From positions 1,048,007 to 1,112,006 of the forward strand of contig JACROE010000002.1 in assembly GCA_016214565.1 (NCBI GenBank): 64,000 nt of DNA, given 5' to 3'. The translations under genes and the position numbers were made by a program. The number at the start of each line of letters is the position of its first letter. Positions within the stretch are counted from its first letter, which is position 1. This document shows positions 7,493 to 15,161 of the stretch, piece by piece. The DNA is from Candidatus Kerfeldbacteria bacterium (GTDB lineage: Bacteria > Patescibacteriota > Patescibacteriia > UBA10025 > JAHIVO01). The notes under the pieces were generated by a model. The model worked only from the letters and a program-made list of their open reading frames with translations. It was not told the DNA's origin and ran no database searches.

Positions 7493-8873
7493 GCATTTTT
7501 CTATTAATAGCTGAAATTAAGCGCTCGTTAATCTCAGTAATCGTACCGGCGCCCATGGTTATGATAATATCTCCAGTTCGTATCTGTCGCGTAACCGCAC
7601 TAACAATTGCCGAAAATGACTTATAATACTGCACATCAGGGTGAATCTTCGAAATTTCTTTAACCAATGAAGGTGTGGCCAGACGCTCCGCGGTTTCTCG
7701 CCCACTCACTAAATAAATGTCGGACAAAACAAGAGTGTCTGCATCACCAAAAGCTGTTACAAAGTCTTTAAATAAAGATTTAGTGCGATGGGTGCTATGC
7801 GGCTGGAAAATGCACCATATCCGCCGTTTGGGAAAATATTGTTTAGCTGTTTGTAGTGTAGCTCGAATTTCGGTTGGATGATGCGCATAGTCATCAACCA
7901 CTACAACACCGCCTGGTTCACCTGTTATTTCAAATCGACGCCAGCATCCTCGATAGACCAATAAGCCCCGCTGTATTTGATCTATAGAAATACCAAAAGA
8001 GCGAGCCATCAGCGCCGCGCCAAGCGCATTACGAATATTATGATCACCGGGGACGCGGATCGCCAAATCAAATCGCTCAATACCACGAACACTGAAGCGA
8101 GTTATCTCTCCGTGCCGTTCAATCTGACCAACATAATAATCACCATATGCCAGTCCAAATGTTGTCACATTAGCACGCAGTCGTTTTAGTACTTTCTGAA
8201 CATTAGAATCCTCTGCATTTGCTACCACCGTCCCGCCTTTTGGAACGCTCCGTGCTAGCTTGTCAAACGCAGTGACTACATTTTTTTCTGTCCTGTAGAA
8301 ATCAAGGTGATCCGACTCAATATTATTTATGATAAGTCCGTCCGGAGTATAGTGATGAAAAGCAGCTCGATATTCATCACCTTCGACGATGAAGTGTTTT
8401 CCTAAGCCAACATGGGAATTACCAAAAGCCGGAACCTGAGTACCGACGACAACCATTGGATCGAGACCAGCTTCAAGAAAGATCGTCGCCAGCATCGCCG
8501 TGGTGGTGCTCTTTCCATGCGTACCGCTCACCACGATGGGAATATGTTTATTCATAAACCAACCCAAAAACTCAGGATAACTCAGACACGGTATTTTTAA
8601 TTTTTTCGCTCGTACCAGTTCAGGATTTTTTTCTTGAACCGCATTTGAGTAAACCACCAGCGTGGTGCCTGCCTTCAAACTTTCTGCCCGATGTACGCCA
8701 ATTACAATAGTAATCCCCTCTTTTTTTAGTTGTTTTACTAATAATGAATCAAAAACATCGGTACCGAACACCGCTGAACCAAGTTGATGCAATATGCGAG
8801 CGACGGCCGATACGCCAATACCTCCTATACCGACACAGTGAACACGTTGTAATGAATAGTTTTGCATAATCAA
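7479..8873 (-). CDS. murC: UDP-N-acetylmuramate--L-alanine ligase MurC
   Basis: GIGGIGVSAVARIL Rossmann motif and the Mur ligase P-loop GTHGKSTTTAM. 464 aa. Confidence 0.9.
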   Translation of the reverse strand: MIMQNYSLQRVHCVGIGGIGVSAVARILHQLGSAVFGTDVFDSLLVKQLKKEGITIVIGVHRAESLKAGTTLVVYSNAVQEKNPELVRAKKLKIPCLSYPEFLGWFMNKHIPIVVSGTHGKSTTTAMLATIFLEAGLDPMVVVGTQVPAFGNSHVGLGKHFIVEGDEYRAAFHHYTPDGLIINNIESDHLDFYRTEKNVVTAFDKLARSVPKGGTVVANAEDSNVQKVLKRLRANVTTFGLAYGDYYVGQIERHGEITRFSVRGIERFDLAIRVPGDHNIRNALGAALMARSFGISIDQIQRGLLVYRGCWRRFEITGEPGGVVVVDDYAHHPTEIRATLQTAKQYFPKRRIWCIFQPHSTHRTKSLFKDFVTAFGDADTLVLSDIYLVSGRETAERLATPSLVKEISKIHPDVQYYKSFSAIVSAVTRQIRTGDIIITMGAGTITEINERLISAINRKMRGKK

Positions 8874-9925
8874 TTAATAAGCAGTGAGGCAATGGTACTA
8901 TCAGCGTCGGGTTTCATCATCTTCCCCATGGATGAGCTTAATTGCTCGCGACGGACTACATCAGTTGCCAATACGTTCAGTGTATTCATAAATCTTCCTG
9001 GTGACAAATCCTTTTGTAAAATAACCTCAGCGGCGTTCTTTTCAGCAAAATATAAAGCATTTTCTTCCTGATGTGAATCAGGAAGCGGTACGAGCAATGT
9101 TACTGCGGATACAGTCGAAAGTTCGCTCAAAGTAGAAAGGCCGGCTCGAGACACCACTACCTGTGCCGCCGCCATATAGTCAGCAATACCATCTGAAATA
9201 AATTCAAACTGCCGATAGTGCGCGTGATCGATGCCAGCCACACGCTTTCCGACACCAGTACAATGAATTATTTGATACTGTTCGATTAATTTAGGCAGTG
9301 ATTGTTGGACAATTGAATTAAGTCCAGTTGAGCCCGTCCCACCACCTAGGATTAAAATAATTGGAATGTTTTGATCAAAGTTCAATCCAGTGAATGCACG
9401 TTGTGGGTTCGGCTGGGTAAATATGTGACGAACAGGGTTTCCCGTCCATTCTGTTTTATGTGCGGGGAAACGCGCTAATGATTTTTCAAATGAAACGGTA
9501 ATTCGCTTGGCTACATTAAGCATCAAAATATTTGACAACGATGGGCGCACATCTTGCTGATGAATATAAATACGTGCCCCACACACCCAGCCCGCCCACA
9601 TGACCGGCACTTGGACGTATCCGCCCGAACCAATAATAACATCCGGACGCATGCGTAAAAAAATTCCGATTGACTGGAAAAACCCCAGCACAATTAAAAA
9701 TATATCAACTACATTTTTCAATGAAAAGTAACGTCTAAATTTTCCACAAAAAACTCGACGCGAGGATATGGCCTCTCCCTCAAATAGCTCAAATTCAATA
9801 GTTCCGTCGCGAGGTCCAATAAAATAAAGCTCCACATCAGGCCTGATGGCTTTCACCTTTTTTGCAACTGACAACAATGGCATAATCGACCCACCCGTGC
9901 CACCGCCAGTAAAAACGATCTTCAT
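8870..9925 (-). CDS. murG: undecaprenyldiphospho-muramoylpentapeptide beta-N-acetylglucosaminyltransferase MurG
   Basis: N-terminal MKIVFTGGGTGGS G-loop, a GT28 fold and a length of 351 aa. Confidence 0.9.
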   Translation of the reverse strand: MKIVFTGGGTGGSIMPLLSVAKKVKAIRPDVELYFIGPRDGTIEFELFEGEAISSRRVFCGKFRRYFSLKNVVDIFLIVLGFFQSIGIFLRMRPDVIIGSGGYVQVPVMWAGWVCGARIYIHQQDVRPSLSNILMLNVAKRITVSFEKSLARFPAHKTEWTGNPVRHIFTQPNPQRAFTGLNFDQNIPIILILGGGTGSTGLNSIVQQSLPKLIEQYQIIHCTGVGKRVAGIDHAHYRQFEFISDGIADYMAAAQVVVSRAGLSTLSELSTVSAVTLLVPLPDSHQEENALYFAEKNAAEVILQKDLSPGRFMNTLNVLATDVVRREQLSSSMGKMMKPDADSTIASLLIN

Positions 9926-11025
9926 GCTTTTGTCTGTTTAGAAATGTTAATCAAAATACCTATGGCAACTAAAGAGGTAACCAATGCTGAACTCCCATAA
10001 CTGATAAAAGGTAATGGAATACCGGTCAGCGGCACCAGCGTAACCATTGCTGCAATATTGATAAAAGCTTGCATGACGATCCAAATAACAATTCCCGTGG
10101 CTACTAATTTGCCAAATGTGTCGGGCGCTTTTTTCGCAATAAGTAGGCCGCGCTTCATAAACCAAATAAATAGCAAAATGAGTGCAACGGACATAAAAAG
10201 CCCCATTTCTTCAGCAACAATCGCAAAAATTGAATCCCCGGTTACCTCAGGTAAATACAGATATTTCTGGCGGGAATGACCGAGCCCAAGGCCGAACAAG
10301 CCGCCACTTCCGATCGCCAGCAACGCCTGATTGATATGATAGCCTATCCCCTGCGGATCAAGTGCTGGATTTAAAAAAACTGTAAATCGAGCAGCCCGAT
10401 ATGGCGCAAGCTTAATCAATACAAAAAACAACGAAACTGCGCTGGCAACAAGAATTGCCAAATGCTTGAGCGGAGCTCCGGCTACATAAAATATTAAAAA
10501 TCCAATCAATGCAATGGTAACCATTGTTCCCATGTCTGGCTGCAGCATGATCAGAAATACGACGCTGCCCGCAATAATAATAAAGGGAATCAAACCATAA
10601 CCAGCCTCTTTAATCCCCTCTTTATTTTTCTCAAAGAGAGTTGCCAAATACAAGATAAAAGCTAATTTCAGCATTTCGCTCGGCTGAAATATAATGGGCC
10701 CAAGCTGGATCCACCGTCTGGCTCCGCCATACTCAAAACCAATACCGGGAATAAGCACGCCTAGCAATAAAATTACCGTTACCGCCATGAGTGGAAAAGC
10801 GAACTTCCGCCACACGTGATAATCAATTTTTGCCATAACAATCAAACCAACCGTGCCGATCAGCACACCGTACAGTAACTGATGCTTGAGTAAATAATTA
10901 CTATCGCCAAACTTTTCGAATGACAGCACTGAGCTCGCTGAAGCAAGCATAACCAGCCCATACAGGACAATCACTCCTACTATGGCAATAATTCGATAAT
11001 CTGGTTTATGTGTGGATACGGACAT
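9922..11025 (-). CDS. ftsW: peptidoglycan glycosyltransferase FtsW/RodA (SEDS family)
   Basis: 367 aa with ~10 TM helices, SEDS-like, and positioned between murD and murG as in the conserved dcw order. Confidence 0.85.
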   Translation of the reverse strand: MSVSTHKPDYRIIAIVGVIVLYGLVMLASASSVLSFEKFGDSNYLLKHQLLYGVLIGTVGLIVMAKIDYHVWRKFAFPLMAVTVILLLGVLIPGIGFEYGGARRWIQLGPIIFQPSEMLKLAFILYLATLFEKNKEGIKEAGYGLIPFIIIAGSVVFLIMLQPDMGTMVTIALIGFLIFYVAGAPLKHLAILVASAVSLFFVLIKLAPYRAARFTVFLNPALDPQGIGYHINQALLAIGSGGLFGLGLGHSRQKYLYLPEVTGDSIFAIVAEEMGLFMSVALILLFIWFMKRGLLIAKKAPDTFGKLVATGIVIWIVMQAFINIAAMVTLVPLTGIPLPFISYGSSALVTSLVAIGILINISKQTKA

Positions 11026-11028
11026 ACG

Positions 11029-13170
11029 TTAACGAATTGATAAAACAAATTTGCTAAATTGATCGCCGCGATCAAATTCATTTTGAAACATACCGAAACT
11101 TGCCGCGCCTGGTGATAGTACAACTGGGTATCGACCCACGGATTTTTCCTGTGCAACTTGAATAGCTGCTTGCATCGAATGAACGGTCGTACATTGATAA
11201 TATTTTTTCTTTCGTAGTAACTGGTTAATTTTGTCTGAAGCGGAACCAGACAACAATATGCACCAAACTGCGTGCTGGCGTATTGTTTTCACAAACTCAT
11301 TAAAATCCAATCGCTTATCAGCGCCACCGGCGATCAGTACAACTTTCGAGTTGATTGATTTCAGTGTGGCTATAGCAGCGTCTGGAATAGTCGCGGTCGT
11401 ATCATTGATATACGCTACACCCTGTATTTCGCGAATGACCTCCATCCGGCCTGACAAACCGTGAAACGCAATAACCGCTTTTCGAATAATGGTATGTGAC
11501 ACACCAGAAATTCGCGCAGCCGCTATGGCCGCCAGAATATTTGATACATTATGAGCACCACGAAGTCCACAATCAGATAACCGCATAACTTCAGACAAAA
11601 CACCATTAATGCGCACAAATATGGCTCTTTTATGAACAAATACGGCGTGCTGCTCGTTAATTGATTTACGAGAAAACCACATGCGCTTGCCAGGCACTTC
11701 TCTTCCCCACATCCGAGTCGTGGGATCATCATAGTTCAAGATCGTCCAATCGTCCTGGCTTTGAAATCTAAAAATATTCTTTTTCGCATTATGGTAGCCG
11801 ATGACCGTTTTATGACGATTCAGATGATCATGCAGAATATTAGTTACTACGGCAATCGGTGGGCTGTGCCGTGCCTGCGCGCTATCCTCGAGCTGAAAAG
11901 AAGACAGCTCCAGTACCGCGGTACGACTACTAATTGTTTTTGAAAGCAAATCAAACGGTGAAATACGAATATTACCCCCAAGCAACGGTCGTTTCTTCGC
12001 GTGCTTAAGTATTTCATAAATCAATTGCGTCACTGTGGACTTGCCCTTCGTCCCAGTCACCCCAATGATTGGCGACTTACTCAAACGATAGAAAATACTT
12101 AATTCATTTTCGACGGGCACTTGTGCTTGATGAGCCGCTTTAATGTAAGGTGAATAATTTGGCACGCCAGGATTTTGGATTACTAAGTCAGTATGAGTAA
12201 AATCCCTCATTTGATGCTTGCCAAGCACGTACGTAATATTTTTCTTTGGTAACCGTTTGATTGATGCGGCTAGAATTTTGCGCGATCGTAAGTCAGTTAC
12301 GATAACGTGTGCACCACGCTTATGCGCCCAACGCGCCGCTGCTATTCCACCGCCGTGCAATCCTAATCCCATCACTGTTACCCGCTTTCCTTTCAGCCTT
12401 AGATCAGGGCCGATCCATTTATAAATAATGTCTTTTATTAAAGTTAATTGTTTTTTCTCACGAAATGTGTGCGGTGCATCTGGTATGAGGACAAACTTTT
12501 TTTGGCAGGTAAGGCGTTGATAGAGTTTAAAAACATGTTCTGCAGGAGTACTGTCATCTTTTTCTCCGACAATCAATAAAGTCGGCATAATTAAACGCTT
12601 TGCCTGAGGCAACACATCATATCGTAAACGATCTTCCATATGAGACCATTTTAATCGTTTGATTAACCCAGGTTTGCTTTTGCTGTATTTGATAAGCCAG
12701 CCTGTTCTTTCCCATTGAACATATTCCCTCTTCTTTTCAACGCGTGAGATACTCAGCTTGCCTGATACTACAGGAGATATGGGTATCAGTGATGCTACCT
12801 GCTCAGGATATCGTTGAGCATATAAAATTGAACAGATACCGCCAAGCGAGTGCCCGGTCAGCCAGAATGGCTGCTGAAACCAAGGCTGCGTCCGTGCCCA
12901 CTTAATAACATCTTCTAAATCTTGGTAATAATTAGTGACCGTCGCATTTTCATACGCCCCTCCGCTTTCACCCACACTATTTGTTGTATCAAAACGAACG
13001 ACCGTAAAATTTCGTTCATAAAATGTTTTCGCTACCAGCTCAATATGCTTTTGCTCTTTAAAACCACCCAATCCGTGCATAACAAAAACCAACCCACGGG
13101 CTCGAGGGTTGATCTGGATGAGCGTAACTAGGCGCAAACCATGCCGATTACGAATAATTTTCTTTACCAT
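11029..13170 (-). CDS. murD: fusion protein: N-terminal alpha/beta-hydrolase domain + UDP-N-acetylmuramoylalanine--D-glutamate ligase MurD
   Basis: 713 aa in one continuous ORF. Residues 1-250 carry the HGLGGF oxyanion motif and the GHSLGG nucleophile elbow. The rest is MurD: LKGKRVTVMGLGLHGGGIAAARW Rossmann N-terminus and the GVTGTKGKSTVT P-loop. No stop or alternative start lies at the junction. Confidence 0.8.
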   Translation of the reverse strand: MVKKIIRNRHGLRLVTLIQINPRARGLVFVMHGLGGFKEQKHIELVAKTFYERNFTVVRFDTTNSVGESGGAYENATVTNYYQDLEDVIKWARTQPWFQQPFWLTGHSLGGICSILYAQRYPEQVASLIPISPVVSGKLSISRVEKKREYVQWERTGWLIKYSKSKPGLIKRLKWSHMEDRLRYDVLPQAKRLIMPTLLIVGEKDDSTPAEHVFKLYQRLTCQKKFVLIPDAPHTFREKKQLTLIKDIIYKWIGPDLRLKGKRVTVMGLGLHGGGIAAARWAHKRGAHVIVTDLRSRKILAASIKRLPKKNITYVLGKHQMRDFTHTDLVIQNPGVPNYSPYIKAAHQAQVPVENELSIFYRLSKSPIIGVTGTKGKSTVTQLIYEILKHAKKRPLLGGNIRISPFDLLSKTISSRTAVLELSSFQLEDSAQARHSPPIAVVTNILHDHLNRHKTVIGYHNAKKNIFRFQSQDDWTILNYDDPTTRMWGREVPGKRMWFSRKSINEQHAVFVHKRAIFVRINGVLSEVMRLSDCGLRGAHNVSNILAAIAAARISGVSHTIIRKAVIAFHGLSGRMEVIREIQGVAYINDTTATIPDAAIATLKSINSKVVLIAGGADKRLDFNEFVKTIRQHAVWCILLSGSASDKINQLLRKKKYYQCTTVHSMQAAIQVAQEKSVGRYPVVLSPGAASFGMFQNEFDRGDQFSKFVLSIR

Positions 13171-13234
13171 ACGTAGGCACTACTATACCACAAAAGCTCA
13201 CTTTTTTGAAGTGAGATGTGCGAATGCTACCTGA

Positions 13235-13702
13235 CTATTTCCTTAATTTTGATGGTAGCTCAATAAAAACAGATAGCGGTATTACTTGTTTTCGGCGGTA
13301 TCGTTCAATAGCCGCCAAAACATTGTTACTGCGGATTTTACCTTGCTTCGCCAATGCTTTAATTTCATCGTATGAAAACCATTGTATTGCTGGATGTTCA
13401 GATGTAATTCGCAACCTCCCGCCAATAATTTTAGAAACTACCACAGGAGCTATCAGAGTATTGCCCCGCTGAGTAAGCCGCACCTGATAGATGCCAATTA
13501 ACTTGGTTGGTTTAACTCGAAAACCAGTTTCTTCAAACGCCTCCCGGGTGGCACATTCTACGATCGTTTCTCCTAGTTCCATATTACCAGCTGGAAAGTT
13601 ATATTGACCACGAACAAAGTATTTTGATTCCTGAACGAGCAAAAACTTACCGCCACGGCTTATCAGATTACATACTGCAATAAATACTCCGCGTCTTCGC
13701 AT
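13235..13702 (-). CDS. NUDIX hydrolase
   Basis: 155 aa. Nudix box G-x5-E-x7-REAFEETG (GNMELGETIVECATREAFEETGF). Inserted between mraY and murD. Confidence 0.8.
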   Translation of the reverse strand: MRRRGVFIAVCNLISRGGKFLLVQESKYFVRGQYNFPAGNMELGETIVECATREAFEETGFRVKPTKLIGIYQVRLTQRGNTLIAPVVVSKIIGGRLRITSEHPAIQWFSYDEIKALAKQGKIRSNNVLAAIERYRRKQVIPLSVFIELPSKLRK

Positions 13703-14751
13703 TATCGATCAACTAAAAATATTATTACGCCCAATACAGCAGTCACTGCCGCGATTATCCAAAATCGCATAACAATTTTTGGTTCTGGCCAACCCCGAGC
13801 TTCAAGATGATGGTGTAATGGCGACGAAATAAAAACTTTTTTATGAATTGTCTTACGCGCGATAATTTGAATAATAACGGAGCCAGAAACCAAAACAAAC
13901 ATAAACCCAATAATGGGAAGTAACAAAGCGGCATTTGTCAACATGGCAACGATGCCAAGCGTAACCCCAAGGGACATCGCACCCGTGTCACCCATAAAGA
14001 AACGTGCCGGATTGATGTTAAACCATAAAAAAGCAAGCAGTGAACCAATAATCACTCCACAGAAAGCGGCTAAATCCATCCTGCCTTGAGCAAACGCAAT
14101 TGCGCCAAAAGCACCGAACGCAGCTAAGAGCGTCCCGCCCGCCAAACCATCCAGACCATCAATTTCATTCACGGAAAAAGCGGTTGCTACGATAATAAAT
14201 AAAAAAATGGGGACATACCATATACCGATATCATAATTCCCCACAAATGGAACGTGGATGGTCGTCCAGTCGAGCCGATAATAAAACCACCAGGCACCAA
14301 CCACAGCAATAAGGGTGTAAAGTAGTAATTTATGCCTGACGCGAAGCCCTCCACTATGGGCGCCAACTCCTTTAATATTAAATATGTCATCAATAAATCC
14401 AATGATGGCAGAAGCAACGAGGGCGGCAAGCGGTAGCCAAGTTTGCGATCGATTAAGAAAATTGAGCTTATCAATAAATGGATTATCAACCATGTTTGCC
14501 AGGACAAAGAAAAAAATTGCCAGCACCGCCGTGGTTACCCAGATCAGCAACCCCCCCATGGTGGGAGTGCCAGCTTTTCCCTGATGTAATTTACTATAAA
14601 TTGGAGTTTCGCCTGTTTCACGGATCGTTTTCCCCATTTTAAACTTATACAAGTAATGGGTTAAAAGCGGGGTCCACGCAAGCGTCACCACAAAAGCGAT
14701 CGTGGTAAGCAAAAAAACTTTAATAATATCAATATTTTCGGGCAATTCCAT
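13702..14751 (-). CDS. mraY: phospho-N-acetylmuramoyl-pentapeptide transferase MraY
   Basis: 349 aa polytopic membrane protein, MraY/WecA family, in dcw context. Confidence 0.85.
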   Translation of the reverse strand: MELPENIDIIKVFLLTTIAFVVTLAWTPLLTHYLYKFKMGKTIRETGETPIYSKLHQGKAGTPTMGGLLIWVTTAVLAIFFFVLANMVDNPFIDKLNFLNRSQTWLPLAALVASAIIGFIDDIFNIKGVGAHSGGLRVRHKLLLYTLIAVVGAWWFYYRLDWTTIHVPFVGNYDIGIWYVPIFLFIIVATAFSVNEIDGLDGLAGGTLLAAFGAFGAIAFAQGRMDLAAFCGVIIGSLLAFLWFNINPARFFMGDTGAMSLGVTLGIVAMLTNAALLLPIIGFMFVLVSGSVIIQIIARKTIHKKVFISSPLHHHLEARGWPEPKIVMRFWIIAAVTAVLGVIIFLVDR

Positions 14752-14759
14752 AGTTATTA

Positions 14760-15161
14760 CTATAACGTGTTCTGACGCATAATCAAGTAACTGGCAACAA
14801 CTAACAGAACCTGACAGGCAAGAGAAAAACTAAGTTGTAATCGAGACAAAATAAAAGACTTTTTATGAAGCTGCCGGGCAAAAATTATATTAAGTATCAT
14901 GATGCCAGTACCTATTGCCGGCATCAAAAAAATTCTGTACCATTGGCCAACAAGGTCTACCCCAAAGTAAATGTTATAATGTAAGTACATAACCTCTTCA
15001 TACGGGCTGACGACCAATGCCAGGTATATCCACTGACCAACATTAAATGCCAATCCGGCTGCAATAAGCAGAACCGAAACCCGATCGCGAGAAAGAAATG
15101 GGTCGCGCCGTGAAACTAATCGCTTGAGTAGTGAAACAATATGCATTATCGTAAAATTCAA
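14760..15161 (-). CDS. membrane protein, hypothetical
   Basis: 133 aa with 3-4 TM helices. Its start region overlaps the divergent GT39 gene start. The real start may be Met6 at 15146. Confidence 0.4.
   Translation of the reverse strand: MNFTIMHIVSLLKRLVSRRDPFLSRDRVSVLLIAAGLAFNVGQWIYLALVVSPYEEVMYLHYNIYFGVDLVGQWYRIFLMPAIGTGIMILNIIFARQLHKKSFILSRLQLSFSLACQVLLVVASYLIMRQNTL

Follow-up and report, generated by a model that had tools for sequence, protein, structure and literature searches.

Does a hydrolase that has become part of MurD take part in making peptidoglycan precursors, or has it merely been caught up in the murD gene? The question is raised by a locus in a metagenome-assembled genome (MAG) of Candidatus Kerfeldbacteria, from a very small bacterium of groundwater. 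Here, within a stretch of 64,000 nucleotides (contig JACROE010000002.1, positions 1,048,007 to 1,112,006, assembly GCA_016214565.1; hereafter the window), one open reading frame (ORF) joins an alpha/beta serine hydrolase domain in frame to full-length MurD, and a gene for a NUDIX hydrolase lies between mraY and this fusion. Set against related genomes, the arrangement looks like a rare capture of genes that can be dispensed with, and not like a new system of cell-wall proofreading. We consider it probable that a NUDIX-esterase pair was captured at this site, that the esterase frame continues into murD, and that the two halves of the fused protein work independently.

The fusion is a single uninterrupted ORF of 713 aa (11029..13170, minus strand) that starts with ATG and has no internal stop in the ORF listing; its protein record, from a 1.1-Mb contig of the MAG, is MBI5038078.1. 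At aa 23-252 it is matched by the Pfam profiles Hydrolase_4 (4e-20; 72.5 bits against a cut-off of 27) and Abhydrolase_1 (2e-14; 54.1 bits against 25.8), both above gathering score; weak Pfam matches to S33, S9 and S15 were also seen. The C-terminal part matches the NCBIfam murD profile TIGR01087 at aa 263-709, which spans positions 1-439 of the 441 in the profile and scores 390.2 bits (cut-off 211.95; 1.4e-116). Moreover, the Mur-ligase domains MurD-like_N (PF21799), Mur_ligase_M (PF08245) and Mur_ligase_C (PF02875) lie at aa 262-680, all above cut-off, and the translation of this half contains the P-loop GTKGKST and an HDHLNRH motif. An earlier reading made from the letters alone (the sequence-only reading) had claimed an in-frame hydrolase-MurD ORF, and this is borne out; the motifs that it quoted were all located, FVMHGLGGF and TGHSLGG in the fusion ORF and LKGKRVTVMGLGLHGGG at the junction. 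In alignment, stand-alone hydrolases stop at the position equivalent to fusion aa 253-257, and strand beta-1 of MurD (KRVTVMGLG) starts at aa 261. A separate MurD translated from an internal start was also considered. The only in-frame candidates are GTG266 and ATG267, use of which would remove beta-1 of the N-domain, and we judged this unlikely.

The 155-aa product of the ORF between mraY and the fusion scores 65.5 bits against a Pfam cut-off of 21.1 for PF00293, and its translation contains a complete Nudix box, G39-x5-E45-x7-R53-E54-x2-E57-E58-x-G60, followed by F61; the sequence-only reading had likewise placed a NUDIX gene here. The start codon of the gene and the mraY stop codon share one base. 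No specific NCBIfam equivalog reached its cut-off for this protein, which is 73% identical to the NUDIX protein encoded in the same place at locus L001.

A frameshift or a lost stop, introduced by sequencing or assembly, could in principle have merged two genes, an explanation to which we give practically no weight. The identical protein was recovered from the NCBI assembly and from an independent Logan assembly. An orthologue, P0002 (GCA_049325535.1, locus L001), has 714 aa, is 61% identical and has the same junction, including the junction peptide WIGPDLRL, within a gene order that matches the window (mraY-NUDIX-fusion-ftsW-murG-murC-murB). Its 90% cluster holds five further members of 710-714 aa from other assemblies, and no homopolymer run was seen in the DNA at the junction. 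An assembly artefact was therefore rejected, because the fusion recurs in independent assemblies and in a diverged orthologue.

Rarity was assessed by a full-length phmmer search against 1.84 billion (1.84e9) protein cluster representatives, in which any combination of the hydrolase (~330 bits alone) and MurD (~400 bits) would be expected to score above all MurDs that stand alone. This hydrolase is combined with MurD in the cluster of the query alone (P0001, one 50%-identity cluster), and the remaining close MurD relatives are ~440-490 aa long. A widespread hydrolase-MurD architecture was rejected on this result. The sequence-only reading had proposed looking for such fusions in other genomes; the outcome is a second genome and five assemblies, all within one 50% cluster, and the architecture is confined to one small lineage. 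It also appears to be undescribed, as that reading had supposed. Literature searches gave no description of a hydrolase-MurD fusion, nor of the PgeF-MurD fusions discussed below, and a survey of Mur chimeras, which excluded unidentified species and hence candidate phyla, lists MurE-MurF, MurC-Ddl, MurC-MurB, MurG-MurC, MurD-FtsW and MraY-MurG with no hydrolase partner (PMC10214165).

What kind of enzyme was joined to MurD? Residues 1-257 alone match ~1,950 proteins, nearly all of them stand-alone proteins of 254-275 aa, and the fused domain is 55-62% identical over its full length to stand-alone proteins of ~256 aa. Among the 120 best homologues, 118 are 253-300 aa long, and the window copy differs in being fused to MurD. 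Ser108 is invariant in 20 of 20 aligned family members; Asp205, His234 and the oxyanion-loop residues H32-G33 are likewise invariant columns of the family alignment. Ser108 aligns with the GHSQGG serine of the cinnamoyl esterase 7xrh, Asp205 with the Asp of IVGSNDQ in the same protein and His234 with its DADHSF. The triad is kept in P0002, with Ser in G-A-S-I-G-G, the Asp, and His in GAPHIF. The AlphaFold2 (AF2) model of the domain has a predicted local distance difference test score (pLDDT) of 90.7 and a predicted template modelling score (pTM) of 0.89. Foldseek places it nearest to the feruloyl/cinnamoyl/chlorogenate esterases Est1E (2wtm), GthFAE (7wwh), 8skm and LJ0536 (3pf8) and to monoacylglycerol lipases in the PDB, at template modelling (TM) scores of 0.75-0.82 and E-values down to 2e-18 with only 18-24% sequence identity; none of these is a peptidase. 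Judged by these comparisons, the domain is a carboxylesterase-type serine hydrolase. The profile search that the sequence-only reading had suggested for these residues leads to Hydrolase_4 and Abhydrolase_1, and the structure search to esterases and lipases.

The distribution of the family was scanned in GTDB species representatives, giving 207 loci of which the best 80 were kept, 79 of them besides the fusion locus; in most of the loci L002-L081 the hydrolase lies at about 8001-8770. These loci come from many groups of the candidate phyla radiation (CPR) and from Woesearchaeota and Nanoarchaeia (DPANN). Two archaeal contigs carry genes for replication factor C and an XPD-type helicase, and are therefore genuinely archaeal. 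Mean identity is 62% between archaeal members, 62% between bacterial members and 61% between archaeal and bacterial members, and the family tree is star-like with the archaeal sequences scattered across it, suggesting either extreme constraint or repeated inter-domain transfer. Since the family is so uniform in organisms with and without murein, a peptidoglycan-specific role is unlikely. We also considered a mobile or defence origin. IMG/VR viral contigs gave no relatives, PADLOC gave the hydrolase no match and the NUDIX protein only a generic match to PDC-S07, and this origin was rejected. At one further locus (L023:7113-8762) the hydrolase domain is preceded by an N-terminal domain of ~295 aa in a protein of 549 aa.

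Around the hydrolase in these 79 loci, the neighbouring genes vary widely. A mur gene is the immediate neighbour at only two of them, L031 and L058, so that about 97% of loci show no link between the family and mur genes, and 2/79 is roughly the chance expectation for a ~12-gene pathway in a ~1,000-gene genome. At L031, in Komeilibacteria, the order is mraY-murD-ftsW-murG-murC-hydrolase-murB with overlapping ORFs, placing mur genes on both sides of the hydrolase. At L058 the hydrolase overlaps the start of a Mur ligase by 4 nt. This locus was tried as a precursor state with the hydrolase beside MurD and rejected, since the neighbour is murE according to NCBIfam and not murD. The murE ORF as called there (L058:1189-3146) is short of ~80-100 N-terminal residues of the MurE profile, through a start miscall or a truncation.

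These contexts bear on the alternative that the two halves are functionally coupled, with the esterase-like domain, alone or together with the NUDIX protein, editing, recycling or destroying aberrant UDP-N-acetylmuramic acid (UDP-MurNAc)-amino acid precursors at the MurD step. We hold such coupling to be quite unlikely. It would gain from the stand-alone hydrolases inside or beside mur genes at L031 and L058, from the conservation of the triad in both fused orthologues, from the fact that alpha/beta hydrolases include amidases and peptidases, and from the weak S33, S9 and S15 matches. It would lose from the equal conservation of the family in DPANN archaea, from the absence of linkage in nearly all loci, and from nearest structures (TM ~0.8) that are feruloyl/cinnamoyl esterases and monoacylglycerol lipases.

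NUDIX genes, by contrast, are modestly enriched beside the family. With a hidden Markov model built from the local NUDIX proteins, NUDIX was found in 19 of the 511 positions that are fused to the hydrolase or at most three genes away, and in 10 of the 726 more distant ones (Fisher test; odds ratio 2.8, p = 0.012), and it is the commonest Pfam family among immediate hydrolase neighbours (7/144). Four proteins (L021, L038, L046 and P0182) are hydrolase-NUDIX fusions, and in L002 and the archaeal L014 the two genes form a tight pair. The association of hydrolase and NUDIX is real but loose. The fusion proteins, on bacterial and archaeal contigs, are 412-456 aa long and have a YfcD/IDI-like NUDIX domain at the C-terminus.

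How the pair came to lie next to MurD can be approached through relatives with the same synteny: type II secretion system (T2SS) F and E genes, PMT_2, an ORF of ~125 aa, mraY, murD, ftsW, murG and murC. As these relatives show every state at the mraY-murD junction (Table 1), the junction is a hotspot for insertion. Moreover, because hydrolase-MurD fusions and fusions of a PgeF-like domain to MurD both occur there, MurD has gained an N-terminal domain at least twice. The seven genes inserted in L165 (L165:4925-8635) encode proteins of 63-208 aa, mostly without Pfam matches. The NUDIX gene is absent from L082 (assembly GCA_964419765.1), L083 and L164, and no remnant of it was found in the mraY-murD spacers of L083 (270 bp) and L082 (76 bp).

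Four flanking genes (T2SSE, PMT, MraY and FtsW; 1,733 columns, 8 taxa) give a neighbour-joining tree of the form (WIN,(L001,(L082,L083))), where WIN is the window and the split uniting L001, L082 and L083 has 97% bootstrap. The two fusion genomes are therefore paraphyletic. In addition, murD of L083 starts with MMKKVISNRQ, and 6 of these 10 residues agree with the N-terminus of the fused hydrolase, the family-invariant K3, N8 and R9 among them; none of 1,196 control ORF N-termini scored as high. In the DNA, L083 murD agrees with L001 at 22 of its first 30 nt. These ten codons appear to be the scar of an in-frame hydrolase deletion, and L083 also has the promoter and leader block described below. 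Together, the flanking-gene tree and the ten-codon remnant point to later deletion of hydrolase and NUDIX in the sister lineages, and since those lineages lost the domain while keeping murD, it is, on this reconstruction, demonstrably dispensable for MurD. This order of gain and loss is the simplest that the comparison suggests. MurD itself evolves far faster than its neighbours in this clade, with 59% identity between L082 and L083 as against 82-90% in T2SSE, MraY and FtsW.

Loss of the domain in the sisters also raises the alternative that it is a decaying passenger, an appendage of an essential protein that has no enzymatic role and is heading for the same deletion. We think this unlikely. 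The case is strongest for P0002, which lies on a very long branch of the family tree and keeps 50 of 65 family positions that are at least 95% conserved; among the 15 of 65 that it has lost are the K-E-Q motif that follows the oxyanion loop and the His that precedes the nucleophile. L082 and L083 show, further, that deletion is tolerated. However, only three of the 65 positions have changed in the window copy (62 kept), the Ser, Asp and His and an uninterrupted frame of 257 codons are retained in both copies over ~49% divergence, and the AF2 model of the domain is confident. The fused hydrolase halves are 51% identical to each other, the MurD halves 67%, and stand-alone members of the family average 62%. 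This fits relaxed or shifted constraint, whereas a functional unit newly integrated into the protein would be expected to show tighter constraint. Faster evolution of the fused copies without added constraint likewise counts against functional coupling, as does the retention of murD by sister lineages that dropped the domain and the NUDIX gene.

The full-length AF2 model has a mean pLDDT of 93.9 and a pTM of 0.87, with a coil at aa 254-262 (pLDDT ~86-88). This model suggests a definite packing of hydrolase on MurD, a packing without co-evolution support, as only two sequences span both domains. It should be read with care, since the full-length MAFFT alignment shifts ~60-70 N-terminal residues of stand-alone MurDs onto the hydrolase. 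Together with the linker-less join, the high pTM speaks for coupling of the two halves. So does the position of the PgeF-MurD fusions of L166 and L167, in which the added domain is likewise N-terminal and directly after mraY, given that PgeF prefers UDP-MurNAc-monopeptides, the substrate class of MurD (PMC12280929, PMC8844914). No PgeF homologue was found in the 64-kb window or the flanks examined, which says little, as this is 64 kb of a 1.1-Mb genome. On this alternative, the domain would correspond to PgeF without being homologous to it, and the role of the fusion would be channelling of substrate or proofreading beside the MurD active site. Stated most fully, the domain, possibly with the NUDIX protein, would replace PgeF as a serine-hydrolase proofreader or salvage enzyme, fixed rigidly to MurD and clearing UDP-MurNAc precursors that are damaged or wrongly charged. 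MurD of this CPR lineage would then have recruited an editing partner twice independently, from PgeF in one clade and, in another, from the alpha/beta hydrolases; we regard this as very doubtful.

The sequence-only reading held that the architecture points to editing or recycling of UDP-MurNAc precursors, and here it finds no support. The stand-alone family is common to CPR phyla and DPANN archaea, mur neighbours occur at about the chance rate, the nearest structures are not peptidases, and the closest genomes of the same synteny are without both inserts, with one murD retaining the first ten hydrolase codons. Editing of peptidoglycan precursors is a possible role that the comparative evidence leaves unsupported.

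We therefore return to independent halves within a captured gene pair. We propose that a NUDIX gene and an esterase gene of ~256 aa entered the mraY/murD junction of a Kerfeldbacteria-like genome ancestral to the four genomes (window, L001, L082 and L083). The esterase ORF would have landed directly behind a murD-proximal promoter, reading into murD without a linker. The C-terminal 456 residues would carry out the ordinary MurD reaction, the ATP-dependent addition of D-glutamate to UDP-MurNAc-L-alanine, and the N-terminal domain has most likely remained, under looser constraint, an active enzyme of carboxylesterase type with a Ser-Asp-His triad, probably acting on the same small substrate as its stand-alone relatives. 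Because of the NUDIX association, that substrate could plausibly be an esterified, nucleoside-diphosphate-linked metabolite, with the esterase removing the ester and the NUDIX protein acting as pyrophosphatase. The fusion would then mainly provide co-expression and would not be needed for MurD function, with each half presumably working on its own. In the lineage of L082 and L083 the NUDIX gene and hydrolase codons ~11-255 would later have been removed by an in-frame deletion that murD survived.

Several observations weigh against this proposal. The MurD tree pairs the window with L001 (100%), in conflict with the flanking-gene tree, and could instead reflect one late acquisition, after which the murD region was exchanged. 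A pTM of 0.87 is above expectation for a free-floating domain, making a fixed interface and functional coupling possible. The fusion has persisted over ~33-49% protein divergence with its triad intact, and for that reason should have some selective value. The same junction position is filled in a more distant clade by PgeF, a proven editor of UDP-MurNAc-monopeptides, so that N-terminal partners of MurD can be relevant to the pathway. As for the NUDIX gene, the partners of the hydrolase fall into at least three subfamilies. Among the 80 best metagenomic relatives of the window NUDIX (at most 40% identity), none lies beside this hydrolase family or mur genes, although downstream of one there is a distant alpha/beta hydrolase (23% identity); a conserved NUDIX-hydrolase cassette, viewed from the NUDIX side, was accordingly rejected.

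The promoter invoked above would lie in the 64-nt spacer between the NUDIX gene and the fusion. There, TTCAAA (13210-13205) is followed after 17 nt by TG-TATAGT ending at 13182, the -10 hexamer lying 11 nt from the ATG, and a 7-bp hairpin occupies 13215-13197. By consensus scan alone this promoter-like element is no better than shuffle expectation. However, the block TGGTATAGT-N11-ATG is conserved before the fusion in L001 and before the stand-alone murD in L082 and L083. More broadly, an extended -10-like element (TGGTATAGT or TGGTATACT) is conserved only 8-11 nt ahead of the murD or fusion ATG, which suggests that a promoter close to murD, within the dcw (division and cell wall) cluster, gives a transcript with a very short leader or no leader. 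The sequence-only reading had described both hydrolases as physically and transcriptionally wired into precursor synthesis. The transcriptional link holds only in part, as this conserved promoter-like element lies between NUDIX and fusion.

The MurD part sits between mraY and ftsW (Table 1), the same order being found in L001, L082, L083, L164 and L165, and murG, murC and murB follow beyond ftsW in the ORF list. Window MraY is 81-89% identical to MraY of the same-synteny relatives. Directly upstream of mraY, always in these genomes and also at the Komeilibacteria locus, is a gene for a predicted membrane protein of ~120-133 aa without a Pfam match, which may be FtsL-like or an otherwise uncharacterised component of the dcw cluster.

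Table 1. Positions of the fusion, its neighbours and related features (window positions unless a locus handle precedes them)
Feature	Location	Strand	Basis or remark
Alpha/beta serine hydrolase (esterase-like) domain	12400..13170	-	aa 1-257; Pfam, homologues, AF2 model
Codon of Ser108, predicted nucleophile, in G-H-S-L-G-G	12847..12849	-	invariant column in family alignment
Codon of Asp205, predicted triad acid	12556..12558	-	invariant column in family alignment
Codon of His234, predicted triad base, in DAPHTF	12469..12471	-	invariant column in family alignment
Domain junction, aa 254-262 (GPDLRLKGK), essentially linker-less	12385..12411	-	domain ends from alignment and profile
Full-length MurD part, aa 258-713 (456 residues)	11029..12399	-	TIGR01087, Pfam
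64-nt spacer between NUDIX gene and fusion, with promoter-like element	13171..13234	-	consensus scan
NUDIX hydrolase gene, 155 aa, between mraY and fusion	13235..13702	-	PF00293, 6.6e-18
mraY, 349 aa, upstream boundary of insert	13702..14751	-	PF00953, 5.7e-32, and MraY_sig1
ftsW, downstream boundary	9922..11025	-	PF01098, 5e-102
Extended -10-like element	window 13171-13215	-	
Extended -10-like element	L001:9955-10000; L082:6955-7000; L083:6955-6997; L166:5985-6000		
Membrane protein upstream of mraY	window 14760-15161	-	
Membrane protein upstream of mraY	L001:8013-8408; L082:5477-5878; L031:1649-2008		
mraY-murD junction state	L082, L164		nothing between mraY and murD
mraY-murD junction state	L083		270-bp spacer
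mraY-murD junction state	L165		seven unrelated small genes
mraY-murD junction state	window, L001		NUDIX and hydrolase-MurD
mraY-murD junction state	L166, L167		PgeF-like domain fused to MurD
Putative hydrolase remnant on stand-alone murD	L083:6998-7040		10 codons
Hydrolase-NUDIX fusions	L021:7983-9353; L038:14-1252; L046:7971-9251; P0182		
PgeF-MurD fusion	L166:6001-8127		P0262, 708 aa
PgeF-MurD fusion	L167:6001-8145		P0340, 714 aa, GCA_016204645.1
Unusual MurD architectures			P0306 (600 aa); P0314 (855 aa); P0378 (1330 aa)

If the two halves are independent, the locus is a well-documented case of streamlined CPR genomes building, and then dismantling, multi-domain proteins at an insertion-prone operon junction, and a caution against inferring function from a single 'Rosetta-stone' fusion. 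If the coupling were true, it would be a second, unrelated enzyme class for quality control of peptidoglycan precursors, physically tied to MurD. Two further results may outweigh the main finding. One is an uncharacterised serine hydrolase family common to CPR and DPANN at ~61% identity, with its recurrent NUDIX pairing. The other is the natural PgeF-MurD fusions, which bear on the coupling of PgeF with MurC or MurD that was sought by pulldown and not detected (PMC12280929).

Set beside known systems, the fusion resembles the Mur chimeras of the dcw cluster (PMC10214165), in which a Mur enzyme is likewise in frame with the product of a neighbouring gene and linker-less head-to-tail joins are known. 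Partners there need not catalyse consecutive steps, and the halves of MurE-MurF were shown to be independently functional (PMC10214165). However, the partners described are all peptidoglycan or division proteins, whereas here the partner is an uncharacterised enzyme of the esterase family that arrived by insertion; in related genomes it is not a component of the dcw cluster, and the fusion thus lacks the defining trait of the chimeras, a cell-wall enzyme on either side of the join. Other joins occur among the relatives. A 622-aa ORF of L167 (9229-11095) combines MurG domains (Glyco_transf_28) with FAD_binding_4 of MurB in an apparent MurG-MurB fusion, suggesting that fusions of adjacent dcw genes are frequent in this lineage. 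Odd MurD architectures among the nearest representatives include GrpB-MurD, a MurD that ends in a lactonase-like beta-propeller and a polypeptide made up of three Mur ligases.

The PgeF-MurD fusions are a parallel in position and size, and they give concrete form to the idea of editing beside MurD. In genomes of the same synteny (T2SS-PMT-mraY-murD-ftsW), a PgeF/YfiH-type hydrolytic domain of ~255 aa forms the N-terminal part of a MurD fusion whose gene comes directly after mraY. These domains match Cu-oxidase_4, and TIGR00726 at 148 bits (P0340) and 127 bits (P0262) against a cut-off of 141. PgeF cleaves the monopeptides UDP-MurNAc-Ser and -Gly (PMC12280929, PMC8844914), and in E. coli pulldown revealed no interaction of it with MurC or MurD (PMC12280929); no mention of PgeF-MurD fusions was found in either paper. 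The fold and family are unrelated to those of the window domain, aa 1-257 of which gave no match to Cu-oxidase_4 (PF02578) in Pfam or TIGR00726 in NCBIfam. Moreover, PgeF has a demonstrated activity on these precursors, whereas the hydrolase family is uncharacterised and is also found in archaea.

In fold, the window domain compares with the feruloyl/cinnamoyl esterases (2wtm, 3pf8, 7wwh) and monoacylglycerol lipases, sharing with them the alpha/beta fold with a small cap after strand 6, the GxSxG nucleophile and the Ser-Asp-His order. The sequence of the substrate-binding cap is not conserved, identity is only 18-24%, and the CPR/DPANN family need not act on hydroxycinnamate esters or glycerides. 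Its nearest kin are the stand-alone CPR/DPANN hydrolases and their NUDIX fusions, with which it shares its sequence, nearly all of the near-invariant positions and a NUDIX gene nearby. It differs from them in that its C-terminus is fused to MurD, whereas its relatives are free or fused to NUDIX, and its NUDIX partner is a separate upstream gene of a subfamily other than the YfcD/IDI-like NUDIX of the hydrolase-NUDIX fusions.

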